NCBI GenBank assembly: GCA_963718515.1
Contig: OY970354.1
Location: 110,363 to 174,362, forward strand
Source of the DNA: an uncultured bacterium
Lineage (GTDB): Bacteria > Patescibacteriota > Minisyncoccia > UBA6257 > 2-01-FULL-56-20
DNA: 64,000 nt
Direction of reading: 5' to 3'
Position numbers and translations under genes: made by a program. This document shows positions 16,107 to 62,702 of the stretch, in pieces. The notes under the pieces are model-generated. The model had not been told where the DNA came from and did no database searches. It saw nothing but the letters and a program-made list of their open reading frames with translations. Each line of letters begins with the position of its first letter. Position 1 is the first letter of the stretch.

Positions 16107-17936
16107 ATGTCCAACCTTACTAAGAATATCATCTGGGCCATCATCACGCTTATCATCGTCTCGCTCATCTTTTCATATTTCATAGGACCACAAACTCCGA
16201 CGACGACGCTCAACCTCAACCAAGTGGTGACTGACGTGAACGCCGGTACCATAAAACAGATCAAAGTGAACGGCGACGAGCTCGATATCACGATGACGAA
16301 CGGCAGTGCGGCGACCGCGCAGAAAGAGGATGAATCCGGCATAACCGATACCCTGAAGAATTTGGGAGTGAATCAGCAGGCCCTCCAAAATGTTGACCTT
16401 GAGGTCGTGAATCAATCCGGCTGGGAATACTGGGCAACCATTTTGGTCGATCCGATCCTGACGCTTCTTATCATTGGCGTTCTTTTCTGGTTCATGTTCC
16501 GCCAGGCAAAGAGCGGTGTCAACCAGGCATTCAATTTCGGCCGGTCGAACCTTAAGCTCTCCAACATAAAGGATAAAGTCTTATTTAAAGATGTTGCCGG
16601 CCTCAAAGAGGCGAAGGAGGAGCTGATCGAGGTCGTCGATTTCTTAAAAAATCCTCAAAAATTCCTTGACTTGGGCGCGCGCATCCCCCGCGGTATATTG
16701 CTGATGGGCCCTCCCGGCACCGGCAAGACGCTCGTCGCCCGCGCCGTCGCCGGCGAAAGCAACGTCCCCTTCTTCTATATATCTGCATCCGAGTTCGTGG
16801 AAATGTTCGTCGGCGTCGGCGCCTCACGCACCCGCGACGCCTTCATGCAGGCCAAGCGGGCCTCGCCCGCTATCCTGTTCATCGATGAGATCGATGCCGT
16901 CGGGCGCCAGCGCGGCGCCGGCATGGGCGGTGGCAGTGATGAACGCGAACAGACACTGAACCAGATCCTCGTCGAGATGGACGGCTTTGACCGCGATACC
17001 CGCGTGATCGTTTTGGCCGCCACGAACCGCCCGGATATTTTGGATCCGGCCCTACTCCGACCAGGCCGCTTTGACCGCCGCGTCATCCTCGATCTTCCCG
17101 ACATGAACGACCGCGAAGCGATCCTCAAAATCCACGCGGAAGGCAAGAGCCTCGAAAAGAACGTCGACCTGCGCCGCGTCGCGGGACGCACCCCGGGATT
17201 CTCCGGCGCGGACCTTGCGAACTTAATGAACGAGGCCGCAATCGCCTCCGCGCGGCACAACAAAAAAGTGATCGGCCAGCCGGAACTTTTCGAAGCCGCA
17301 GAGAAAGTGATCATGGGACCGGAGCGCAAGAGCCGCGTCATCTCGCAGAAAGAAAAAGAGATCACCGCATACCACGAAGGCGGGCACGCTCTCGTTGCCG
17401 CTTCCGTAAAAGATGCCGACCCGGTGCAGAAAGTTTCCATCATTTCCCGCGGCTTCGCCGGCGGCTACACGATGAAGTTGCCGAACGAAGACCAGCATCT
17501 CAAGACGCGCAACCAGTTCCTCGCCGACCTCGCGATGATGATGGGCGGCTACGCCTCGGAAAAATTGACGTTTGGCGATATCTCGACCGGCGCATCGAAT
17601 GATCTTAAAGAAGCGTCCGAGCTCGCGCGCCGCATGGTCGTCAAATACGGCATGAGCGACCTCGGCCCGATCGTCTTCGGCAAAAGCGAGCAGATGATGT
17701 TCCTCGGCCAGGAGATCTCGAACGACAAGAATTATTCCGATCGCGTTGCGTCGGATATCGACGAACAGATCAAAAAATTCCTCATGCACTCCTACGACGT
17801 CGCCGAAAGGATCTTGAAAACCCATAAGAACGCGCTCAAAAAAATCGCCGATACGCTCATGGACAAAGAAGTACTCGAACAAGATGACTTTAATGCGGTA
17901 TTGAAGCCATTCAGGATCAAACCCATCGCGGCATAA
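16107..17936 (+). CDS. ftsH: ATP-dependent zinc metalloprotease FtsH
   Basis: 609 aa. N-terminal TM pair, Walker A GPPGTGKT, Walker [32 protein letters not shown], and zinc site HEGGHA. Confidence 0.97.
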
Positions 17937-18058
17937 CAAATAGCCTCCTGCATCGTCTCTCGGGCACGGTGTCGCGATCTGCTGATCGCGCACCTCTTGC
18001 CTCGCCGCCTTCGCGGCTCCGGCTGTCCCTCGATCCTATGCAGGAGGCTATTTGTTAT
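17933..18058 (-). ncRNA. Candidate structured RNA / repeat element, copy 1 of 3 (21-bp outer hairpin enclosing the conserved two-hairpin core; core reads on the minus strand)
   Basis: Arms 17933-17953 and 18038-18058 are perfect complements. Reverse-complemented interior: GCC-GGA-GCCGC-GAAG-GCGGC-GA-GGC ... GGUG-C-GCGAUC-AGCA-GAUCGC-GA-CACC, which aligns with copies 2 and 3 with compensatory changes. Confidence 0.4.
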
Positions 18059-18132
18059 TCAGCACCATGGTTCACTTTGATATACTTAAATGTATCGGGA
18101 AAGGTCGATGTAAAGAGTAGTTTTTATACCCA

Positions 18133-18336
18133 ATGAAAACCATCCATATCATCGCGTTCGTCCTCCTTATCGTCGGAGGTTTGAACTGGCTCCTCGTCGG
18201 CTTCGGCTTCAACCTGGTTGATTATCTCTTCGGCGTCGGTTCGGTCCTTTCGAGGATCATCTATATTCTCGTCGGCCTCTCGGCAATCATCGAGCTCTTC
18301 ACCCACAGGAAGAATTGCAAGATGTGCAGTATATAG
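18133..18336 (+). CDS. DUF378-family small membrane protein
   Basis: 67 aa. LLIVGGLNWLLVGFGFNLVDYLFG...LSRIIYILVGLSAI matches the conserved DUF378 pattern. Confidence 0.8.
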   Translation: MKTIHIIAFVLLIVGGLNWLLVGFGFNLVDYLFGVGSVLSRIIYILVGLSAIIELFTHRKNCKMCSI

Positions 18337-18341
18337 GAAAT

Positions 18342-18371
18342 AAAAAATCGCCCAATGTTGGGCGGTTTTTT
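18342..18371. terminator. Bidirectional rho-independent terminator
   Basis: AAAAAA-T-CGCCCAA-TG-TTGGGCG-G-TTTTTT between convergent genes. Confidence 0.7.
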
Positions 18372-18383
18372 ATTTGACGCTAT

Positions 18384-18752
18384 CTATTTATCTTCAAGAA
18401 CGCCGATTCTATCTTCCAGTTTATTCGTGCGCTCATTCAACGAACCGAATCCTTCTAAGCAAAGATCAAATTTATCCTCAAGCCGATCAAGTTGGACGCC
18501 CATTTTGCGCTGAGATTCCTCAAGCTTTTTTACACTGCCATCGAGGACTTCCACCTTCTCGTCAAGATTTTCTATCTTGTTATCGAGGCTTTCTACCTTC
18601 TTATCAAGGCCTTGCACTTTTTTATCAAGATTTTCTACTTTTTTATCGAGGCCTTCCACTTTGTTATCAAGGCTTTCTACCTTCTTATCAAGGCCTTCTA
18701 CTTTCTTATCAAGACTTTCTAAGGAAACTTTCTTTTGTAATCTTTTTATCAT
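18384..18752 (-). CDS. Coiled-coil protein built from tandem heptads (VExLDKK)
   Basis: 122 aa with nine consecutive heptads, LDKKVEGLDKKVESLDNKVEGLDKKVENLDKKVQGLDKKVESLDNKIENLDEKVEVLD. Confidence 0.6.
   Translation of the reverse strand: MIKRLQKKVSLESLDKKVEGLDKKVESLDNKVEGLDKKVENLDKKVQGLDKKVESLDNKIENLDEKVEVLDGSVKKLEESQRKMGVQLDRLEDKFDLCLEGFGSLNERTNKLEDRIGVLEDK
18538..18726. repeat. Nine tandem 21-bp repeats (in-frame heptad repeats inside CDS 18384..18752)
   Basis: Units such as TTATCAAGGCCTTCTACTTTC recur head-to-tail every 21 nt with a few substitutions. Confidence 0.75.
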
Positions 18753-18820
18753 CCTCCTATTCTAGAAGTTATATCAAAAACGTCAAAAGTTCTTTAATGA
18801 TTTTTTAATCATTACGAGGG

Positions 18821-18892
18821 TGCGCCCGCCAGGATTCGAACCTGGGACCAGCCGTGTATAAGACGGCGGCTCTACCGCTGAGCTACAGGCGC
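18821..18892 (-). tRNA. tRNA with anticodon TAT (tRNA-Ile, AUA-reading)
   Basis: Hand-folded on the minus strand. Acceptor GCGCCTG/CGGGCGC, D-arm GCTC-AGCGGTA-GAGC, anticodon stem GCCGT/ACGGC with loop CTTATAC, T-arm CCAGG-TTCGAAT-CCTGG, discriminator A. Confidence 0.8.
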
Positions 18893-18912
18893 ATATATTT
18901 CTGTCTCATTGT

Positions 18913-19033
18913 GCCCGAAAGATTCCGTGATGGTTTGAGGGGTGTCACGGAGGCGCGTAGGCGCCGAGTGCCAAGGGGCGCGTTCAGTAGAACGCGACCC
19001 CGTCCCCGAAAGCCATCACGGAATCTTTCGGGC
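18913..19033 (+). ncRNA. Candidate structured RNA / repeat element, copy 2 of 3 (21-bp outer hairpin plus extension; core reads on the plus strand)
   Basis: Arms 18913-18933 and 19013-19033 are perfect complements. The extension UUUGAGGGG/CCCCGAAAG has a tandem G-A/A-G. Core: CAC-GGA-GGCGC-GUAG-GCGCC-GA-GUG (18946-18970) and GGGG-C-GCGUUC-AGUA-GAACGC-GA-CCCC (18975-19001). Confidence 0.4.
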
Positions 19034-19635
19034 TACTCGTTATTCTTCTCTATAGTATCAAACTTTGTCATTGCTTGCCCGGCCTGCGCGTTGAAGTTGT
19101 TGATCGCGTTCACGTCGGTGTTGATCTGATTCACGATGCCCGTCACGTCGCCGTTTGGCACCCACGTGCCATTGAATCGCGTCTGAAGCACCGCGAGCAA
19201 GCGGTCGAGATCGTTGCTGTAGGTGATGAGCTCGTTGATGAGCGCGAGTTGGCTCGAGATCGATTCGAGCGCGGCCTGCTGTGCGGAGGGTGACGTGATG
19301 TCCGGCAGATCGCTCGTCATCTGGCTCACCTGCGCGGAAAGTTGGACCGCTTCGTTGCGAAGCCCGGCGCTCTGGTTGATAAGATCCGTCGTCGAAGCGA
19401 GCGCGGCTTTGTAGTTCCCTTCCTCATCGAACTGGCTGATCCCGTCGAGCTCGGCGGTGGACTGGTTGGAACTGCTCACGATCGTTTGCGAGATGATGGC
19501 CCCCTGAAGCCGCGCGGCGGTAAAGTCCGCAGGCACTTTGTTCTCGTGCTGCCAGAACTTGGCAATGCCATAGCCCACCGCTACGACGATAACAAAAGCC
19601 GCGATAGTCTTTGTGCGACGGGAAAATTTAGCCAT
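19033..19635 (-). CDS. Membrane-anchored hypothetical protein
   Basis: ORF 19033..20010 trimmed to the internal Met (MAKFSRRTKTIAAFVIVVAVGYGIAKF, ATG at 19635) because the upstream part runs through tRNA-Gly. One N-terminal TM helix, then a Q/S/N/A-rich helical ectodomain. Confidence 0.6.
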   Translation of the reverse strand: MAKFSRRTKTIAAFVIVVAVGYGIAKFWQHENKVPADFTAARLQGAIISQTIVSSSNQSTAELDGISQFDEEGNYKAALASTTDLINQSAGLRNEAVQLSAQVSQMTSDLPDITSPSAQQAALESISSQLALINELITYSNDLDRLLAVLQTRFNGTWVPNGDVTGIVNQINTDVNAINNFNAQAGQAMTKFDTIEKNNE

Positions 19636-19740
19636 ATTGGAATACCTATTTTTAGCAAAAATCATTGAAAAATGCAAGGAGGAATGGTAGATTAAGAGCG
19701 CACTGCGGGTACGATAAGCGCTGGCGCACCAAACAAAACC

Positions 19741-42859: not shown

Positions 42860-44146
42860 ATGAAGCGCTATATCTACATCATCATCGGCATCGTCGTCGT
42901 AGCCGCACTCGCGATCGCGGCGCTCCTCTATATTAAGGACCGATCCGCTGTGTCGGGCGGCGGAACGACCACAACCACCGGCTCCCTTCCCCCGGTAGGC
43001 ACGCAGGGGACGACCGGCTCCGGCGGTAACGGCACCACGACAACAGGCTCGGGATCATCGGGCACAACTGGCCCAGGCGGCACAAGCGCCTCCGCAGGGA
43101 CGGGCGTCCAAGCATTCGGCATGCTTTCAAACGACCCCGTTCTTGACTACTTCGTCGGCGCGGGAAACACGATCACCGCGATCGAGCCGACGGGCGAAAT
43201 TGTTTCGATCGCTGGCGGGCAATCCACCACTATTAATTCATCGACGATCAATGACATCATCTCCGCCAGCTTCTCCTATGACGGAAGAAAGATATTGGTA
43301 AGCTTCGGAGATCCCGCGAACCCGCAGTCGAGCGTCTTTGATATTATTTCGGAAACATGGACGGCACTCCCACAAGGCCTGCAGTCGCCGCGATGGTCGT
43401 CGAGCAGCTACCAGATCGCATATTTCTCAACAACGGCCGGCGGAAAGCTCGCGCTTTCAATATTGAACGCGGCGAATCTTAAGACGGCGCCATCGACACT
43501 TCTTACCCTTGCCGCAAGCGACCTTGACCTCCAGTGGGTTTCCAAGAACCAATTCGTGCTTTCCGACAAGCCGACGTCATATGACAATGGCTCCATCTGG
43601 CTATTCAATGCCCAAACCAATGCGCTCTCGGCGCTCGTTTACGAGGCCCCCGGCCTAGAAGGCCTCTGGAGTAATAATACGAGCACGCCGTATGGACTGG
43701 TATTTTTTGATGGCCCGGCGGGGCAGAGCCCAACGCTCCAGTTGCAAGCTCTCTACGGTAATGCGCCGACACAAGCACTCAGCCTCCTCACGCTCCCTTC
43801 TAAGTGTCTTTTTAATACGGAACCCACGCCGTCATCCACCGCCCTCGCCGCAACCTCGACAGCGACGAAGGCGGCGGGTTCCTCCACTTACCTTGCACTC
43901 TATTGCGGCATCCCGCGTACTTCGTCGGGATTCTCTTCGGCGCGCCTGCCGGACGATTACGAGACAATGGCACTTTTTACCTCTGATGATATTTATAAAA
44001 TAAATACCGCAACGGGCGACACGCAAGTGTTATGGAGTGACCAGACGCAGAATATGGATGTCTCCGACATGAAGCTCTTCAATGGCACGTTATTCTTCAT
44101 AAACCGCTACGACCAAAAGTTGTACGGCCTTACGTTCTCTCAATAA
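42860..44146 (+). CDS. Membrane-anchored protein with G/T-rich linker and probable beta-propeller ectodomain
   Basis: 428 aa. TM helix, GGGTTTTTGSLPPVGTQGTTGSGGNGTTTTGSGSSGTTGPGG linker, and a repetitive beta-strand-rich body. The propeller assignment is inference. Confidence 0.55.
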   Translation: MKRYIYIIIGIVVVAALAIAALLYIKDRSAVSGGGTTTTTGSLPPVGTQGTTGSGGNGTTTTGSGSSGTTGPGGTSASAGTGVQAFGMLSNDPVLDYFVGAGNTITAIEPTGEIVSIAGGQSTTINSSTINDIISASFSYDGRKILVSFGDPANPQSSVFDIISETWTALPQGLQSPRWSSSSYQIAYFSTTAGGKLALSILNAANLKTAPSTLLTLAASDLDLQWVSKNQFVLSDKPTSYDNGSIWLFNAQTNALSALVYEAPGLEGLWSNNTSTPYGLVFFDGPAGQSPTLQLQALYGNAPTQALSLLTLPSKCLFNTEPTPSSTALAATSTATKAAGSSTYLALYCGIPRTSSGFSSARLPDDYETMALFTSDDIYKINTATGDTQVLWSDQTQNMDVSDMKLFNGTLFFINRYDQKLYGLTFSQ

Positions 44147-44175
44147 CCCCAGCGGAATAATTAAACTTGTGCGCA

Positions 44176-44245
44176 AATAAAAATAGCTTTTGTATTGTGC
44201 CGAATTATTCTTATCACGAGGCACAATACAAAAGCTATTTTTATT
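44176..44245. terminator. 26-bp perfect hairpin between convergent genes; overlaps the jag stop codon
   Basis: AATAAAAATAGCTTTTGTATTGTGCC (44176-44201) and its exact reverse complement (44220-44245), with an 18-nt loop. Confidence 0.6.
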
Positions 44246-44678
44246 CGAGTATGGGTTTAATAATCACGTATCGCTCTTTTCCTTCGCCTGCACTTTCGGT
44301 TTTTACTTCGGGATGGATCGCGAGTTCCACGTGCACCAACCGACGCTCGTATGAATTCATCGCGGGGAGTGCCACTTCCGTTTTTGTGGTGGACGCTTTC
44401 TTTGCCGCCGCGCGCGCGAGCTCCGCGATCAGGTTCTCACGATCGTGGCGATAGTTGTTGACGTCCAAAAATATCGTCTCGGTCTGGTTCTTTTTTGCGA
44501 CCATCTGGAGAATGTGGTTCACCGCCTCCACGATCGCAGGAAGGTTCTCTTTGAGCATCTCCTGATCCTCATAGATGAATACCGAGCCGCGGCGATCCTC
44601 TATCTTTATCTCGAGGTTATAGTCAGTGAAGCCGATGAGCTCCAATGTTTTTTTAATGAATGATTCCCAGTTGTCCAT
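44241..44678 (-). CDS. jag: Jag/KhpB-like RNA-binding protein (KH + R3H)
   Basis: 145 aa. C-terminal R3H motif LPAMNSYERRLVHVELAIHPEVKTESAGEGKERYVIIKP. Lies in the conserved position downstream of yidC. Confidence 0.85.
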   Translation of the reverse strand: MDNWESFIKKTLELIGFTDYNLEIKIEDRRGSVFIYEDQEMLKENLPAIVEAVNHILQMVAKKNQTETIFLDVNNYRHDRENLIAELARAAAKKASTTKTEVALPAMNSYERRLVHVELAIHPEVKTESAGEGKERYVIIKPILE

Positions 44679-44815
44679 GCGTTCCCGTAACTATTCCATA
44701 ATATGCCTGCAAAATCAAGCGGTGCCGGTAAAATCAGCCATGGCAAAAATAAAGACGCCGTCTTCGTCGAACTATCATCTGCCGGGAGACGAAGACGGCG
44801 TCTTTGTTTTTGCCG

Positions 44816-45529
44816 CTACGCGCCGTATTTCGTGCGAAGATGCTTGTTCACAAAATATTGCTGGGCGGCGGAGAAGAGCGAGCTCATAAGCCAGTAGAGG
44901 CCGAGTGCGGCGGGAAAGTTATAGAAAACGAGAATGGTGATGAGCGGCCCGACGAACACCATCTGGCGCGCGATCTTTTCCGCCTGCGTGGGCGCGCTCG
45001 TGTTGGATGGGTTGCGATAGATAGCAAGCTTTGCTTGAAGGAATTGCCCGGCCGCGGCGGCAAAGATAAGGATGATGTTCGGCTTGGTAAGATTGATGAT
45101 CCCCAAAAACATCGTGTTGATGTTCTGTGGCACGGCGATGAAAGAATATAATCCCGTGATCGCGGTCGTGCCGATCCCGGCGCGGACCACCCAATAGAAC
45201 GTGAGGAGGATCGGTATCTGAATGATAAGAAGAAGAATGCCAGAAAACGGGTTCACTCCGTGCTCTTTATATAATTCCATAAGCGCCTTCGCCTGTTGGT
45301 CGCGGTCATCTTTGTGCTTTGTCTGGATCTCCTTCACCTTCGGCTGGATGCGTTGCATGAGCATCTGCTGTTTCGCGCCGGTGTGGAAAAACGGATAGAG
45401 TATAAGACGAATAAAAAGCGTGACCAATATGATCGCGACGCCAAGGTCATGGAACGCGATTGTTTGGTAAAAAAAAATAAGAAGGTTGAGGATCGGCCGG
45501 TAAAATATCTGCTGATAGAGATACACCAT
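44816..45529 (-). CDS. yidC: Membrane protein insertase YidC (short form)
   Basis: 237 aa. LGVAIILVTLFIRLILYPF ... MQRIQPKVKEIQTKHKDDRDQQAKALMELYKEHGVNPFSG matches YidC/Oxa1. Confidence 0.92.
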   Translation of the reverse strand: MVYLYQQIFYRPILNLLIFFYQTIAFHDLGVAIILVTLFIRLILYPFFHTGAKQQMLMQRIQPKVKEIQTKHKDDRDQQAKALMELYKEHGVNPFSGILLLIIQIPILLTFYWVVRAGIGTTAITGLYSFIAVPQNINTMFLGIINLTKPNIILIFAAAAGQFLQAKLAIYRNPSNTSAPTQAEKIARQMVFVGPLITILVFYNFPAALGLYWLMSSLFSAAQQYFVNKHLRTKYGA

Positions 45530-45542
45530 TGGTTTTTATTAT

Positions 45543-45872
45543 TTATATTTTTGCCGTTGCTATTGTGAGCTCTTCCTGAAATCTTTTTTTTGTGAGGCCG
45601 TTCACCCCGGCAGAGAGGATCATAAGAATGTCCATTCCTTTTCCGCCGCCGTGCTCGCGATTTGCGAGAGATAGAAGCGCCGCCTTCGCCTGACGTTTCC
45701 AAAAATTCCTTTTTGCGGCGCTTTTATGGACGGATTTTCCGGCAACCACTCCGATCCGCACCCTACCGATAGTGTTCATTTTGATTTTCAAAGAAAATAA
45801 TGGATTTCTGATCGTCCTATACCCACGGGCGTGGAACTCATCCCGAGGAAGGCGCGCTACTTTGGGAATCAT
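45543..45872 (-). CDS. rnpA: Ribonuclease P protein component
   Basis: 109 aa. Basic RNR-like stretch KSAAKRNFWKRQAKAA. Lies in the conserved position between rpmH and yidC. Confidence 0.85.
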   Translation of the reverse strand: MIPKVARLPRDEFHARGYRTIRNPLFSLKIKMNTIGRVRIGVVAGKSVHKSAAKRNFWKRQAKAALLSLANREHGGGKGMDILMILSAGVNGLTKKRFQEELTIATAKI

Positions 45873-45910
45873 ATACCTAAAAGATGGTGATGGGGTGCCA
45901 AAAACGACGG

Positions 45911-46045
45911 CTAAACGGTCAATTTCCGCCTGCCTTTTGCCCTTCTTCGGGAAAGAACGCGCCTGCCCGTCGGAGTGGCCTGGCGCTTAAGGAACCCATG
46001 GGTATTCCTCCGCTTCTTTTTCTTTGGATTGTACGTAAACGACAT
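45911..46045 (-). CDS. rpmH: 50S ribosomal protein L34
   Basis: Below the ORF-track cutoff. Hand translation: [44 protein letters not shown] (44 aa), the L34 signature. Confidence 0.9.
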
Positions 46046-46224
46046 TCCCTAGATGGTATCACACTGTTTTTAAAAAGCAAAGCTTCTTTTTTGATCCAGC
46101 GACACCTAAAAAAAGCTGTGCACACGTAATCCCCAGAAAAAGAACTTTTGTTATTTATATGGCTCTTTGACTTGTGGAACGGAAGAGATAATAATGAATC
46201 AACGAACTTAATTATTTTTTAACT

Positions 46225-47583
46225 ATGGACCTTGAGCAAATGTGGCAGTCGACGTTAGGCGAGATGGAGGTTCAATTAACGAAGGCGCATTTTCGACGTG
46301 GTTAAAAAATAGCCGATTGATCGAAAAAAAGGATGATACGTTGTTCGTGGCCCTCCCGAGCAACTTTGCGAAGACGTGGGTGGAAGAAAAATATCAGAAA
46401 AATATCATTGGCATCGTCCGAAATATGGATAACTCGGTCAAGAAGATCGAATTTGTGGTAGGAAACAAGAATTTCCCGACCGCGAAGACGGCTCCCGAAG
46501 TCCAAGAGGCGCAAAAGCCGAACGAGGGCACGCTTGATTTCAATAAGACCGACCCGGAAACGGGTCTGAACCCAAAATATACCCTCGCTTCATTCGTCGT
46601 CGGTCCCTCGAACGAGCTCGCATTCGCCGCGGCGAATGCGATCACCGAAGAGCATCGGAAAAAAATATAATCCGTTCTTTATTTATGGCGGCGTCGGCCT
46701 CGGAAAGACGCATCTTATCCAAGCGATCGGCAACGAGATCATCGCAAAATATAAAGGCAAGGTGAAGCCGAAGTATGTTGCTTCGGAACAGTTCACGCGC
46801 GACATCGTATGGGGTCTCCGCAACGACCGCATCGAGAGCGTGAAGAAGAAATATCGCGACGTTGATGTTCTTATCATCGACGATATTCAATTCATCGGCG
46901 GAAAAGAAAAAACGGAAGAAGAATTTTTCCATACCTTCAACGCGCTCTACGAAAACAATAAACAGATCATTATTTCCTCCGACCGGCCGCCACAATCACT
47001 CCCCACGCTCGAGGAACGCCTCCGCTCGCGCTTTGAGGGCGGCCTCATCGCCGACGTGAGCCTATCCCGGAATATGAGATGCGCGTGGCGATCATCAGGA
47101 GCAAGCTCCAGGATATGAACCGGCAGCTGAGCGATCCCGTAGTGGACCTCATTGCCAAGAAGCTGAGGAAGAATATCCGTGAGTTGGAGGGGGTACTTAA
47201 AAAGATCATCTTCTATGAGGAGCGGAAGCAGACCGAGATCAACGTAAAGATGGCCGAGGAGATCATTGAAAAAGCCACGCAAAACCTCTCAAAGCGGGTC
47301 AATGACGTCGCAGATCCTTAAGGCAGTGGCGGAATTCTTTAATATCACCGTCGAAGACCTCGTGAGCCACAACCGCCGCAAAGAAGTGGTGGAACCGCGC
47401 CAGATCGCCATCTATCTTCTTCGGGATATCTCCGAGCTTTCCTATCCGTATATTGGTGAAAAGCTGGGGAGAGATCACACCACCGCCATCCATTCCTACG
47501 AAAAGATCAACCATGAGATCAACAGAAATCCAGCACTTAACCAGAAGATATTAATGATTAAGGATGTGATTTATAAGAGTTAA
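46225..47583 (+). pseudogene. dnaA: Chromosomal replication initiator DnaA, at least 4 frameshifts as assembled
   Basis: Starts MDLEQMWQSTLGEMEVQLTKAHF at ATG 46225, then continues through ORFs 46242..46670, 46636..47118 ([17 protein letters not shown], Walker B LIIDDIQF), 47079..47321 and 47266..47583 (domain IV: RRKEVVEPRQIAIYLLRD...GRDHTTAIHSYEKI). Confidence 0.9.
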
Positions 47584-47719
47584 TCCCGTCGCTATCCCCA
47601 GATGAAATTACAATGAAGGCTTGTATATATTGAATAAATAAAAAGTTATCCCCTAAAAATCACATTCCTAATAGTAATCTTAGTAGTAAGTATTTAATAT
47701 AAAACTATAATTAAGAGAG
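47584..47719. promoter_or_regulatory. Candidate oriC segment (dnaA-dnaN spacer with DnaA-box-like 9-mers and an AT-rich stretch)
   Basis: CTATCCCCA (47592-47600) and TTATCCCCT (47646-47654) each differ from TTATCCACA at 2 of 9 positions. The flanking sequence is more than 75% AT (TGTATATATTGAATAAATAAAAAG...). A third box, TAATCCCCA, lies at 46127-46135 between rpmH and dnaA. Confidence 0.4.
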
Positions 47720-52771: not shown

Positions 52772-54448
52772 ATGGCGGAAGCACCTCGAGACGACCTTAA
52801 AAGCAGGATCGCCAAGCTCCATCGGGAAGGCGAAGAGCGCGCCGCTGAGCGGCTGGCCGCAAAGCTCGGGCTCAACTATGTGGACCTGGTGAAGGTTCCC
52901 GTTTCGCTTGACGCGGTGAGGATATTGACCGAGAGCGAGGCAAAGGATGCAAAAGTGGCGGCGATCGAACTGAAGGCGAATAAAGTGGCGCTCGCGGCAA
53001 TTGATCCGGAGCTCCCGGCCACAAAGAAGATCGTCGAGGAGTTGGCTATAAAAAAATATGAAGTAAAGGTGGTCGTGGTTTCGCCGTCCAGCATGGATAC
53101 GGCGTGGCATTTTTATCAATTTATAAAACCGGAATCGGCGTCGGTGACGGGCAAGGTGAGCATCACAAAAGAGCATCTCGATGAATTGCGCGGGCGCCTG
53201 ACGACGATCGATGCGGTGCACGAAGAGATCGCGTCGCTTGAATCCTCGAAGGCGTCGCCCACGGAATTGATCGATGTTATCCTGGCTGGCTCGATGGCCC
53301 TGCGCGCGTCGGACATCCATACCGAGGCAGGAGAGAAAAAAGCGAAGATCCGGTTTCGCGTCGACGGATTACTTCACGATATTTTTGATGACATTCCGCT
53401 CGATTCATATCACATGTTCGTGTCGCGCATAAAATTATTATCCGCGATGAAATTGAACGTGCGCGACGCGGCGCAGGACGGTCGCTTTACGATCGGCCTT
53501 GGTGATAAGGATATTGAGATGCGCGTATCCGTGATCCCGGCGGAGTTCGGCGAGACGATCGTCATGAGAATTTTGGACCCGTCGGCCACGATGGTGGGAT
53601 TGCCGGATCTTGGTTTGCGCGAAGATAATCTTGAGCTCGTCAAAAAACAGATCGCGCGGCCGAACGGATTGATATTGAACACCGGCCCCACCGGATCCGG
53701 AAAAACGACCACGCTCTATGCGTTTTTGCGCACCATGAACGATCCGACGATGAAGATCATCACGCTTGAGGATCCGATAGAATATCGTATTGATGGCGTG
53801 GAGCAGACGCAGGTGGATGAGGAATCAGGCTACACATTTGCGAACGGCCTGCGCGCGATCGTGCGGCAGGATCCGGATGTGATCCTTGTGGGCGAGGTGC
53901 GCGATTTGGAAACTGCGGACATCGCCCTGCAGGCGGCGCTGACCGGGCACTTGGTGCTTTCTACTTTGCATACGAACGACGCCGTCGGCGCGGTGCCGCG
54001 TCTCATCAATCTTGGCGTGAAGGCCGTGAGCATCGGCCCGGCGCTCTCGCTCGCGATCGCGCAACGCCTCGTGCGCGTGCTTTGCAAAGAGTGCAAAAAA
54101 CCGGCCGACGTCGATGCTTCGACCGCGGAGAAAATAAAAAAATTTCTCGCGGCATTACCCGCCAAGGTTGATAAGACGAAATACGATAATTATAAGATCT
54201 ACGCTCCGGTGGGTTGTGATAAGTGCAACGGCATCGGGTACAAAGGTCGCATCGGCGTTTTCGAGTTTTTGGAAGGCGGCCCGGACCTGGAGAAAACGAT
54301 CTTGCACGAAGCCTCGGAGATATCATTGCGCGAGGTCGCGCAACGCCAGGAGATGGTGACGATGCAGCAGGACGGGGTGTTGAAGGTGCTGTTGGGGCAG
54401 ACGACATTTGAAGAGGTCGCAGAAGCAACGGGAGAGATCGCCTGGTAG
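52772..54448 (+). CDS. pilB: GspE/PilB-family secretion ATPase (type IV pilus assembly ATPase-like)
   Basis: 558 aa. Walker A TGPTGSGKTTT, Asp box, Walker B ILVGEVRD, His box LVLSTLHTN, and tetracysteine CKEC...CDKC. Confidence 0.93.
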   Translation: MAEAPRDDLKSRIAKLHREGEERAAERLAAKLGLNYVDLVKVPVSLDAVRILTESEAKDAKVAAIELKANKVALAAIDPELPATKKIVEELAIKKYEVKVVVVSPSSMDTAWHFYQFIKPESASVTGKVSITKEHLDELRGRLTTIDAVHEEIASLESSKASPTELIDVILAGSMALRASDIHTEAGEKKAKIRFRVDGLLHDIFDDIPLDSYHMFVSRIKLLSAMKLNVRDAAQDGRFTIGLGDKDIEMRVSVIPAEFGETIVMRILDPSATMVGLPDLGLREDNLELVKKQIARPNGLILNTGPTGSGKTTTLYAFLRTMNDPTMKIITLEDPIEYRIDGVEQTQVDEESGYTFANGLRAIVRQDPDVILVGEVRDLETADIALQAALTGHLVLSTLHTNDAVGAVPRLINLGVKAVSIGPALSLAIAQRLVRVLCKECKKPADVDASTAEKIKKFLAALPAKVDKTKYDNYKIYAPVGCDKCNGIGYKGRIGVFEFLEGGPDLEKTILHEASEISLREVAQRQEMVTMQQDGVLKVLLGQTTFEEVAEATGEIAW

Positions 54449-54504
54449 CGAGCGCATTCTCGCCTCCTGGCAGGTGATAATTCGGCGAGAATGTGCTCGC
54501 TACC
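54444..54504. terminator. 21-bp hairpin overlapping the pilB stop codon
   Basis: GGTAGCGAGCGCATTCTCGCC (54444-54464) pairs with GGCGAGAATGTGCTCGCTACC (54484-54504). One position pairs as G-U on the plus strand. The loop is 19 nt. Confidence 0.55.
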
Positions 54505-54562
54505 ATCGTCCCTTGTTAATAAAAATAAAAACAGCGCAAGAATCTCTTGCACTGTTTCACTA

Positions 54563-60856: not shown

Positions 60857-60990
60857 TTTGGCCAGGGGAAGGGGATTGCTTGCTGTTTTCAGGGTATGCC
60901 GGAGGCGCGAAGGCGCCGAGGCGTAGCGCTTTTTGAGCAGAAAAAGACGCGACCCTGAAAACAGCAAGCAATCCCCTTCCCCTGGCCAAA
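60857..60990 (+). ncRNA. Candidate structured RNA / repeat element, copy 3 of 3 (38-bp perfect outer hairpin; core reads on the plus strand)
   Basis: Arms 60857-60894 and 60953-60990 are perfect complements. Core: GCC-GGA-GGCGC-GAAG-GCGCC-GA-GGC (60898-60922) and GCG-CUUUUU-GAGCAG-AAAAAG-A-CGC-GA (60926-60952). Ends 25 nt before the pyrG start. Confidence 0.4.
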
Positions 60991-61015: not shown

Positions 61016-62702
61016 ATGGCACCGTCGAACTCCAAGGGTCACCACAAATATATTTTCATTGTTGGAGGAGTAATGTCGGGAGTCGGCAAGGGTGTCGCAT
61101 CGTCATCCATCGGAAAAATAATCCAGTCGCGCGGATTGGAAGTGACCTCCATCAAGATCGATCCCTACATTAACGTCGACGCAGGGACAATGAACCCCAC
61201 CGAACACGGTGAGGTTTTTGTTTTGGATGATGGCACGGAATGCGACCAGGATATGGGCAACTATGAACGCTTTTTGGACCGCGATCTTTCCGGCGCGAAC
61301 TATATGACGACGGGAAGCATCTATAAAACGGTCATCGAGCGCGAGCGGAGTATGGGATATGGCGGAAAATCGGTGAGTCCGGTGCCGCACATCCCGCTCG
61401 AGATCCTCGATCGCATCGATAAGGCCGCGGCGCTCGCAAAAGCGGACGTCGTGATCACCGAAGATCGGCGGTACCGTGGGCGAGTACGAGAACATTTTAT
61501 TTTTGGAAGCGATCCGTATGGCGAAGTTCAAACACCCGAAAGATGTTTTGGTGATCTTGGTGAGCCACTTGCCGATCATGAGCGACGACAATGAACTGAA
61601 GACGAAGCCGACCCAGCACGCGGTGCGCGCGCTGAACGCGACGGGTCTCCAGCCGGACATCATTTTGGCGCGCGCGAAATATCCGCTCGACGAAAAGCGC
61701 AAAGAGAAGATCGCGTTCAACTGCAATCTGCGCGAGGAGGATATTATTTCCGCGCCGGATGTTTCGAGCTTGTACGACATCCCGGTCAATTTTGAAAAAG
61801 ACGAGCTCGGCAATTTGATATTGGAAAAACTTTCCATGCGTCCTCGCAAAAAAGGATATGAAGGAGTGGCGTGCGTTCGCGGAAAAGATCCATAACAGCA
61901 AAAGAAGTCGTGCGCATCGGCATCGTGGGAAAATATTTCTCAAGCGGCAAATTTATTCTGGCGGATTCGTATCTTTCGGTGATCGAATCCATAAAACACA
62001 GCGCCGCGTTCTGGGGCGTAAAGCCGGAGATCAAGTGGCTCGATTCGGGCCAGTTCGAGGATGTAAAGAACGGCGGGCGGGGTGCGGAAGGCCTCAAAGA
62101 ACTCGACAATTATGACGGCATTATCGTTCCCGGCGGCTTTGGCGCGCGTGGCGTAGAGGGTAAATTGAATGCCATCCGGTATTGCCGCGAGAACAAGATC
62201 CCGTATTTTGGGCTTTGCTACGGCATGCAACTGGCCACCGTCGAATTTGCCCGGAACGTGTTGCATATGAAGGGCGCGAACACCACGGAGGTGGATCCCA
62301 AAACAAAATATCCCGATGATCGATATTTTGCCGGAGCAGAAGAAGTTGATGGCGGAAAAGAAATATGGCGCGACCATGCGGCTTGGCGCATACCCGGCGG
62401 TGTTAAAGAAAGGGACGATTGCCGACAAAGCCTATGGCAAATCAGAGATCTCCGAGCGGCACCGGCATCGCTATGAAGTGAATCCTGCGTACGTGGAACG
62501 GCTCGAAAAAGGCGGTATCGTTTTTTCCGGACAGTCGCCGTCGCGGCGCCTGATGGAAGTGATGGAGCTCCCGCGCACGGTTCATCCATTTTTTCTTGGC
62601 ACGCAGTTCCATCCGGAATTGAAGTCGCGCCCCTTGCGCCCGCATCCGCTGTTCAAAGAATTCATGAAGGCCGCGAAGGTGCGCCATGAAGCCGCCGCAT
62701 GA
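61016..62702 (+). pseudogene. pyrG: CTP synthase, at least 3 frameshifts as assembled
   Basis: [16 protein letters not shown]...[16 protein letters not shown] is in 61016..61594, [13 protein letters not shown] in 61476..61895, [12 protein letters not shown]...GLCYGMQ (the glutaminase Cys) in 61871..62476, and HRHRYEVN...FLGTQFHPE in 62316..62702. Confidence 0.92.

Follow-up and report, generated by a model that had tools for sequence, protein, structure and literature searches.

A stretch of 64,000 nucleotides from an uncultured patescibacterium (contig OY970354.1 of assembly GCA_963718515.1, positions 110,363 to 174,362; hereafter the window, meaning the whole of this stretch) carries three intergenic copies of a hairpin element, in which a conserved two-hairpin core caps long arms. 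These copies belong to a family of at least ~190 copies, all in Patescibacteria-type contigs and several per genome. Within the core unit, the pairing and the fixed unpaired bases (GGA/GA, GNAG, C/GA, and AGYA) are under selection, and the arms are host DNA whose palindromic form arises and is maintained through copying of one arm onto the other. Tentatively, we regard the family as a Patescibacteria-specific (Paceibacteria/Minisyncoccota) extragenic hairpin element, dispersed and non-coding, which would be functionally analogous to repetitive extragenic palindromic (REP) sequences and REPINs or MITEs (miniature inverted-repeat transposable elements) and which works and evolves at the DNA level. 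The folded single strand of the core may be the form recognized by a structure-specific protein, such as a transposase, a recombinase, or another binding factor.

A preliminary description, made from the letters of the window, had proposed that three loci share one architecture, and inverted-repeat, motif, and fold analyses bore this out (Table 1). The outer inverted repeats of the three copies ranked 1, 3, and 4 by length among the inverted repeats of the window, and the hairpin-1 motif CGGAGSCGCGWAGGCGSCGAG matched at exactly three sites against 0.03 expected. Minimum free energy (MFE) folding of each copy revealed a three-way junction capping a long stem, with z-scores of -9 to -16. This fold was obtained as RNA or DNA and for either strand, and the motif strand was more stable than the opposite strand by 7-9 kcal/mol as RNA and by 0.3-4.5 kcal/mol as DNA. 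Copy 3 is located between a membrane-protein open reading frame (ORF), which has its own terminator-like hairpin, and pyrG; its motif strand is sense to both genes, and the final ~9 nt of its 5' arm (UUUUCAGGG) are the conserved basal stem. Orthologs of copy 3 were found at L055 and at L157/L185/L206/L212 (related loci are cited by such labels). The second hairpin of copy 3 had been drawn in a form of its own; the hairpin is present, but it follows the family architecture with a 3-bp P4 (GCG-C-UUUUUG-AGCA-GAAAAA-GA-CGC), and the register given for it, CUUUUU/AAAAAG, is shifted by one base and corresponds to an MFE alternative. Copy 2 is flanked on one side by tRNA-Ile(UAU) (18818-18893) and on the other by an ORF whose stop codon (19033-19035) shares 1 nt with the arm of the copy; both genes are on the minus strand, and the motif is antisense to them. 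It has an intact ortholog with unrelated arms in L096 and a degenerate one in L094. Copy 1 begins within the ftsH stop codon (TAA, 17934-17936) and carries an inverted copy of the stop region in its far arm, with its motif antisense to ftsH and to the DUF378 gene. A Logan contig of 1662 nt (L003) equals positions 18004-19665 of the window; this short-read assembly of the same organism ends inside hairpin 1 of copy 1.

The core consists of five helices: P1, P2-[GGA/GA]-P3 with a GNAG loop, and P4-[C/GA]-P5 with an AGYA loop. Read 5' to 3', the order is P1, J12, P2, GGA/GA, P3 with GNAG, J24, P4, C/GA, P5 with AGYA, J41 (GU or GA), and P1'. The conserved part reaches ~9-10 bp into the outer helix (consensus UUUUGAGGGG ... 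CCCCGAAAA, often with tandem G·A / A·G), giving a conserved unit of ~95 nt in which a basal stem of ~10 bp surrounds two bulged hairpins. The variable outer stem of the preliminary description was therefore correct for the distal arms but not for this basal part, which is conserved. The GGA/GA loop is not a kink-turn: C-GGA-G opposite C-GA-G forms tandem G·A pairs with only a 1-nt bulge, whereas a kink-turn needs a 3-nt bulge and then tandem sheared G·A / A·G pairs between two helices.

A total of 185,579 species genomes were scanned with one degenerate pattern. The scan returned 90 stretches, ~55 of which were in Patescibacteria metagenome-assembled genomes (MAGs; Paceibacterota, Kaiserbacteria, Minisyncoccia, Parcubacteria, and some Saccharibacteria), several per genome and each with its own long inverted repeat. 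Matches in GC-rich Actinobacteria, Proteobacteria, and Myxococcota were rejected as chance matches, being in coding DNA without arms or a second hairpin. A covariance model built from 52 copies detected ~70 copies in the genome loci, ~15 of them outside the scan pattern. A stricter pattern yielded at least 120 loci in peat, soil, and groundwater metagenomes, and the covariance model found at least 119 copies in 100 of the metagenome loci listed. The further copies in related Patescibacteria that the preliminary description had proposed to look for were thus recovered by the model. About 85% of copies scored as intact (genome loci and the metagenome matches listed). Between the window and a 'Candidatus Paceibacterota' MAG, FtsH identity is 93%. 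Elements also occurred in pairs or triplets, back-to-back in opposite orientation between convergent genes (L064 5634-5868) or in tandem (L060 2613-2950 and L089 5364-7011), and in L075 (2458-2614) one truncated copy adjoined a full copy. An exact 28-mer scan of metagenomes for population variants of copy 3 gave no matches.

Covariation was examined in the 52 genome-derived copies and, independently, in 113 distinct metagenome-derived copies. In the genome set, 99.2% of cells were paired, 11 of the 17 pairs changed on both sides, and 184 cells were changed on both sides; the corresponding values in the metagenome set were 98.8%, 14 of 17, and 405. None of 500 shuffles in each set matched the observed covariation, and a control in which the partners were slid by 1-3 columns was only 23-54% paired. 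The compensatory differences that the preliminary description listed for the three copies are present, and the proposed two-hairpin, three-way-junction core with compensatory changes holds in both sets. The unpaired GGA/GA, G-A-G, and A---A positions were present in all copies of both alignments; most unpaired positions were prescribed by the two scan patterns, the pattern-free ones being the C opposite GA and, in the genome set, the AGYA loop. At these pattern-free positions of the genome set, the C was retained in 48 of 52 copies and the A, G, Y, and A of the loop in 52, 51, 51, and 52, respectively. Copies detected by the model only mostly retained all unpaired bases; isolated exceptions include L004, with an AAAG loop, and L050, with AGAA. 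At a single locus, represented by the cluster of orthologous rRNA spacers, the core helices changed by compensatory substitution, and the unpaired bases stayed fixed.

No known family accounted for the core. At the gathering score, Rfam 15 returned only tRNA, rRNA, and one group I intron over the whole window and 19 related loci, and permissive searches (E<=10 for the window copies, E<=1 for four related loci) gave only chance long-hairpin matches over the elements, for example mir-3613 at 20.6 bits against a threshold of 91. A known RNA family was thus rejected, in agreement with the preliminary description, which had recognized none. The literature search found no paper describing the three-way-junction core. 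A phage or plasmid origin was also rejected: BLAST of the core against phage and plasmid collections gave no matches, and the pattern scan of viral contigs gave only two chance matches, in GC-rich coding DNA without arms or a second hairpin.

The arms had a median length of 26 bp and reached 50 bp, and most were perfect. As had been noted for the three copies, they were unrelated between loci and were shared only by orthologs. At most sites the arms adjoined or overlapped stop codons. In L007, the terminal 13 nt of the upstream gene and the conserved basal stem together make up one arm, which the other arm repeats in inverted form. The window, a close relative with ~77% nucleotide identity across this syntenic 4-kb block, lacks the element at its orthologous site (near 48.84 kb). 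Likewise, a gene end present once in the window (44815-44835) recurs in L022 as an inverted duplicate within an arm. Across 31 orthologous comparisons, 178 arm positions showed mirrored double changes, 48 one-sided changes, and 5 other changes. Comparison of copy 3 with L055 revealed a core identity of 96% and differences at about half of the arm positions, yet the arms were perfect in both, and comparison with L212 revealed an indel of ~9 nt mirrored in both arms. G·T intermediates were occasional, as in the series L032 -> L058 -> L118. No direct target-site duplications flanked the hairpins in the sequences read; the flanks were inverted copies. Identical outer arms elsewhere with target-site duplications, which the preliminary description had named as the sign of a mobile element, were not observed in these sequences. 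The arms were also considered as acquired anti-phage 'spacers', which was rejected: four arm patterns scanned in IMG/VR gave one 22-nt match, and the arms are demonstrably local DNA. This exact identity, between the 5' arm of copy 2 (18916-18937) and a coding region of IMG/VR contig L101 (11732-11753), was accompanied by no other similarity and was judged coincidental, with an estimated chance of a few per cent; the other three arm patterns gave no matches in IMG/VR.

Gain, loss, and inversion were apparent at orthologous sites. Among five genomes compared, this element was present downstream of ftsH only in the window. FtsH of L094, L095, and L099 is 89-93% identical to that of the window, and no element follows ftsH there; L096 carries a hairpin of another family at this site, whose far arm again contains an inverted copy of 'GGCATAA'. 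In L211 and L220, the flanks are 99.5% and 93.6% identical, the arms are homologous, and the core is nearly identical but in the opposite orientation. Further core inversions were found in L104/L086/L220 versus L174/L211 and in L008/L124 versus L176. All these inversions were seen between lineages, and the inverted cores at orthologous loci stayed intact.

Other apex sequences showed a similar arrangement. Perfect inverted repeats of 18 bp or more were searched for without bias in the genome loci and the window. There were 70 of them, 44 of which belonged to this family; the others included no fewer than six further conserved apexes, each set in arms that are unrelated (Table 1). The window hairpins at 44742-44814 and 54443-54505, together with L055 1826-1894, make up a second family in which a conserved apex is held by variable arms. 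Those with TCGCTCCAACGTAAGAACGTCCACTCGCTC, TCACGTTCCTACGTGGCATTT, TGCTGTGCGGACACAAC, and AATCCCGAAGGGTGAGCCC represent at least four further apex families in unrelated perfect arms of 19-41 bp (L022, L024, L026, L027, L063, L066, L092, and L096). The window hairpin at 44157-44264 has an ortholog in L022 (3199-3291) with a different conserved apex (AATCCCGAAGGGTGAGCCC); the distal arm ends of the two are the same inverted gene-end copy, the inner arms are ~70% alike by eye, and the apex families differ. Apex sequences thus appear exchangeable.

These observations can be joined in the following model. Units would be gained and lost at intergenic sites. Once a unit is placed, its stable, GC-rich basal stem would nucleate intrastrand template switching during replication, by which the neighboring DNA of one flank would become the reverse complement of the opposite flank. 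Because template switching copies one flank onto the other, the arms would be local, unrelated between copies, and often furnished with an inverted gene end. The same process would keep the arms perfect, let both arms change together, and occasionally invert the core. In published work, DNA-polymerase template switching is described to homogenize and expand inverted-repeat arms, to invert spacers, and to be able to yield Watson-Crick 'compensatory' changes in one event (PMC8794818, PMC5941160, PMC8604942, PMC13100816). All four signatures (homogenization, expansion, spacer inversion, and one-step 'compensatory' change) are present in the element; the variable outer helix would therefore be a consequence of a GC-rich nucleating hairpin and not part of a designed RNA. 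We infer template switching from this published work on inverted repeats, and mobility would proceed by way of a structure-specific enzyme, possibly with some benefit to the host. A selected core together with gain, loss, and dispersal makes a REP/MITE-like element with a protein-recognized single-stranded fold the most economical model. A more far-reaching version, in which the core is the recognition module of a Patescibacteria-specific system that palindromizes its surroundings (single-stranded DNA transposition or recombination machinery, or an RNA with its own activity), seems to us rather unlikely.

The strand and genomic context of the elements bear on whether they act as DNA or RNA. 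Core mismatches comprised 6 G·U versus 4 A·C in the genome set and 14 G·U versus 24 other mismatches in the metagenome set, and 1645 arm pairs contained 46 mismatches (2.8%), of which 18 were G·T and 15 A·C. Pairing is thus almost purely Watson-Crick, and G·U is no commoner than other mismatches in core or arms. The elements were located mostly directly after stop codons, beside tRNAs, and in the 23S-5S spacer. Among 72 non-redundant sites, a gene 3' end was present only at the motif 3' side (antisense) in 26, only at the 5' side (sense) in 7, and at both in 3, so that 26 of the 33 informative sites were antisense. All seven tRNAs adjoining elements were antisense to the motif strand, as was the rRNA operon in the three orthologous 23S-5S spacers (L032 917-1532, L058 5803-8000, and L071 271-2624). 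These spacers contain this element and a second long hairpin, and the 23S rRNA gene of L071 has a group I intron at 271-995. No promoter-like site was found upstream on the motif strand at any of the three window copies, and none of these copies had a terminator-like call or a U-tract. Tails with at least 7 T in 12 nt were found at 12 of 57 copies on the reverse strand versus 4 of 57 on the motif strand. The T-run of the element sits 5' of the G-rich basal stem, which is the reverse of an intrinsic terminator layout. An own promoter or intrinsic terminator was rejected, since neither was found at the window copies. Orientation set by the direction of replication was rejected as well, since copies 1 and 2 are oppositely oriented 1 kb apart in one replichore. 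The inference in the preliminary description that G·A and U·G pairs point to an RNA and its functional strand was not supported: G·U is as rare as other mismatches, no promoter-like site precedes the window copies on the motif strand, the motif is mostly antisense, and the core has inverted at orthologous loci.

Several results weigh against a DNA element of this kind. The orientation bias of ~80:20 (antisense-only versus sense-only sites) obliges the DNA model to make an extra assumption, such as oriented insertion or selection; the bias could come from oriented insertion with occasional inversion or from RNA-level selection. All-against-all clustering of ORFs at ~55 element-bearing loci gave only syntenic orthologs, so a linked protein gene was rejected, and no transposase, recombinase, or other recurrent protein gene lies beside the elements there. 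None of the 10 window proteins scanned was a transposase. No autonomous element with hairpins 1 and 2 at opposite ends was present in ~0.5 Mb of genome loci and the window, the split-hairpin search yielding only one truncated copy. With no direct target-site duplications and with arms common only to orthologs, mobility is deduced solely from presence and absence. The core is intact at orthologous loci and more conserved there than the arms, and this conservation, together with the compensatory change at the single rRNA-spacer locus, points to a function at each locus and not just to a recently spread parasite. Lastly, all elements are in regions that are likely transcribed, where an RNA role is possible.

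Owing to the orientation bias, a serious rival remains, which on balance we consider unlikely: the element would act in cis as RNA where transcription units end (3'), and the acting strand would be the one not chosen in the preliminary description. The long stem would serve as an RNase III-type processing site, a 3'-exonuclease block, or a U-tract-poor terminator, with the core as a cap or protein-binding site, and would separate or end mRNAs, tRNA precursors, and 23S/5S rRNA. The positions of the elements, which adjoin stop codons or tRNA ends and in three orthologous genomes occupy the 23S-5S spacer, agree with this, as do the conservation of the core at orthologous loci, the antisense excess, by which transcripts (including those of all seven tRNAs) usually carry the reverse complement, and the commoner T-rich tails on that strand. 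However, the other orientation is found at ~20% of sites, and cores that flipped at orthologous loci stayed intact thereafter. Pairs that the opposite strand would read as G·U are not in excess, and the three window copies have neither a U-tract nor a terminator-like call; on the opposite strand, moreover, the unpaired bases are pyrimidines, the tandem G·A becomes a U·C mismatch, and the RNA fold is the weaker one by the 7-9 kcal/mol given above. Alternatively, the element could be a stand-alone structured RNA on the purine-loop strand (a small RNA, a ribozyme, or a ligand- or protein-binding RNA), with the outer helix merely closing the fold. Strong covariation, the greater stability of the motif strand, and unpaired purines resembling RNA tertiary motifs (GGA/GA, GNAG, and AGYA) in almost all copies, including the model-only ones, speak for such an RNA; its size and multi-copy distribution resemble those of small self-cleaving ribozymes, and it would be new, as no known family matches. 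We nevertheless find it quite improbable: the motif strand has no promoter-like sequence upstream, nor do the variable arms offer space for a conserved one, the motif strand is mostly antisense to local transcription units, perfect G·U-free helices of 20-50 bp are unlike RNA stems, the arms evolve by mirrored indels and include gene-end copies, and several unrelated short apex sequences show the same arm behavior.

Two further explanations stay at the DNA level. A programmed invertible switch (inverton), in which the core flips so that flanking transcripts carry the purine- or the pyrimidine-loop version and a cis effect is toggled, would explain both core orientations at orthologous loci, once between nearly identical flanks (L211 vs L220), and the perfect inverted repeats around a short asymmetric segment. 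It is very improbable in our judgment, as the arms differ at every locus and could be recognized by no site-specific invertase, no recombinase gene is linked to the elements, the inversions lie between lineages with none yet within one population, and spacer inversion is a known by-product of template switching (PMC8604942). The elements could also be functionless mutational by-products, with stable hairpins seeding palindromes in repair-poor genomes, gene conversion keeping the cores alike, and template switching alone making the 'covariation'. Covariation that is Watson-Crick only and the arm behavior shared by several unrelated apex families are compatible with this, and according to PMC8794818, template switching is able to make and mend stems in the absence of selection on RNA. 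We regard this origin as highly doubtful. The core is not a by-product, because bulges and internal loops would not survive template switching, yet nearly all of the at least ~190 copies, from many genera, retain GGA/GA and C/GA; because ~85% of copies are intact; and because the helices change compensatorily at single orthologous loci with the unpaired bases fixed. The same 75-nt core also persists where arms and intergenic DNA are about half diverged or unalignable. The REP- or MITE-like element remains the reading that we prefer.

Table 1. Positions of the three element copies and of other features in the window
Feature	Position	Strand	Remarks
Copy 3, whole hairpin element	60857..60990	+	134 nt; covariance model score 84.9 bits
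Copy 3, 5' arm	60857..60895	+	39 nt, 39/39 (100%) complementary to 60952-60990
Copy 3, 3' arm	60952..60990	+	Inverted-repeat partner of 60857-60895
Copy 3, hairpin 1	60898..60922	+	P2 GCC/GGC; internal loop GGA/GA; P3 GGCGC/GCGCC; loop GAAG
Copy 3, hairpin 2	60926..60950	+	P4 GCG/CGC; internal loop C/GA; P5 UUUUUG/GAAAAA; loop AGCA
Copy 2, whole element	18913..19033	+	121 nt; covariance model score 84.3 bits
Copy 2, outer inverted repeat	18913-18942 / 19004-19033		30 nt, 90% complementary, including a perfect 21-bp part
Copy 1, whole element	17933..18058	-	126 nt; motif on minus strand; covariance model score 76.0 bits
Copy 1, outer inverted repeat	17928-17964 / 18027-18063		37 nt, 81% complementary, including a perfect 21-bp part
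Hairpin-1 motif CGGAGSCGCGWAGGCGSCGAG, match 1	18001-18021	-	Window motif scan
Hairpin-1 motif CGGAGSCGCGWAGGCGSCGAG, match 2	18948-18968	+	Window motif scan
Hairpin-1 motif CGGAGSCGCGWAGGCGSCGAG, match 3	60900-60920	+	Window motif scan
Other-family hairpin	44157-44264		45-nt arms; between convergent genes; apex GAATTATTCTTATCACGA
Other-family hairpin	44742-44814		Arms 27 bp (96% complementary); loop GAACTATCATCTGCCGGGA
Other-family hairpin	54443-54505		Arms 22 bp (95% complementary); loop is the reverse complement of a 16/19-identical relative of GAACTATCATCTGCCGGGA; related loop at the orthologous site in L055 (1826-1894)
Other apex sequences			TCGCTCCAACGTAAGAACGTCCACTCGCTC; TCACGTTCCTACGTGGCATTT; TGCTGTGCGGACACAAC; AATCCCGAAGGGTGAGCCC; GAACTATCATCTGCCGGGA; group sharing ATTCTTAT
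pyrG ORFs	61016-61594; 61476-61895; 61871-62476; 62316-62702		Different frames

Some features of the window lie outside the element. The ORF of 122 amino acids between copies 1 and 2 (18384-18752, minus strand) consists almost entirely of 11-residue repeats (LDKKVExLDxKVE...) and is coiled-coil-like. pyrG (CTP synthase, 61016-62702) is split into four overlapping ORFs in different frames, reflecting either pseudogene frameshifts or assembly/consensus errors. The cumulative GC skew has its minimum at ~44-46 kb, beside yidC (44816-45529) and an R3H/jag-like gene (44241-44678), and the replication origin probably lies in this region (~44000-47700). The switch in AT skew and in gene direction is elsewhere, near 25.7-26.0 kb, at AT-rich repeats containing TGTTTGTCGACAAACA.

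The family is an abundant, strongly structured, and so far undescribed repeat of Patescibacteria genomes, which are ~1 Mb in size and are considered stripped of such DNA. It also offers an unusually clear natural case of what would be replication template switching, with perfect arms, mirrored substitutions and an indel, gene-end copying, and spacer inversion. For the discovery of RNA motifs it is a warning, as DNA-level processes can generate and sustain even very strong 'compensatory' covariation; covariation alone is therefore no proof of an RNA. In practice, the hairpins fragment short-read assemblies (e.g., L003). A partner protein or an RNA activity of the core, if there is one, would point to new biology in an uncultivated phylum. 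Should it prove to be a recognition module, it would represent a new kind of genome-structuring element with several sister apex families, and most transcription units would end at hairpins able to repair themselves, extend themselves, and invert.

Among known systems, invertons share a segment between inverted repeats that is found in both orientations (here between lineages), but the element has no conserved recombinase-binding repeats, as its arms differ per locus, and no linked recombinase family. Hammerhead and other self-cleaving ribozymes share a three-way junction of ~70 nt, conserved unpaired purines, tandem G·A pairs adjoining helices, multiple copies, and a variable closing stem. 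Nevertheless, no Rfam match was obtained even at E<=10, the core sequences differ, and the G·A motif of the element is an internal loop with a 1-nt bulge and not a hammerhead junction. Integron attC sites and IS200/IS605 ends are similar by analogy only, in that pairing and a few unpaired or bulged bases are selected, strand-specifically and with weak conservation of the paired sequence. attC conserves the outer R/L boxes (R''/L'' and L'/R') and varies in its center, whereas the element conserves its center and varies in its outer parts, and its copies are dispersed instead of being arranged in cassette arrays. IS608 ends are two similar hairpins separated by genes, and no integrase or TnpA is linked to the element.

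REP/REPIN-RAYT systems and MITEs also resemble the element. REP/REPIN sequences are likewise short, non-coding, extragenic, and hairpin-forming, number in the tens per genome, follow genes or sit between convergent ones, persist vertically at their loci, and have a single-stranded DNA structure that is thought to be the recognition target of the enzyme (PMC3116915, PMC3337134). In REPINs, however, the arms (REP) are conserved and the spacer varies, which is the opposite of a conserved apex in arms of local DNA; the element also lacks the GTAG/CGTC head of REP, and its core is a three-way junction and not a simple stem. REP/REPIN systems have a single-copy RAYT (Y1 HUH) transposase in the same genome; no RAYT gene was seen in the 64-kb window or in 1-15-kb blocks of related genomes. 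MITEs share a small size, a non-autonomous appearance, multiple intergenic copies, and presence or absence between relatives. The preliminary description had argued against a MITE from the conserved core within variable arms; this argument is weakened, since the conserved basal ~10 bp resemble a terminal inverted repeat and could serve as one, and since the variable arms are palindromized host DNA, which blurs the element boundary. The element still differs from MITEs in that it has no direct target-site duplication in the sequences read, no parental insertion sequence was found in the genome loci and the window, and the flanks become inverted and not direct duplicates. With quasipalindrome correction and template switching, as described in PMC5941160, PMC8794818, PMC8604942, and PMC13100816, the element shares arm homogenization, arm expansion, spacer inversion, and one-step 'compensatory' changes. 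Those publications describe these changes for anonymous short inverted repeats, rRNA stems, and yeast promoters, and not as a feature shared throughout a family with a conserved structured core that fills intergenic spacers and copies gene ends. The kind is thus already known, from extragenic palindromic repeats and from the template-switch evolution of inverted repeats; the core has no Rfam match, and the layout, with a conserved apex and local arms, is the reverse of that of REP/REPIN and attC.

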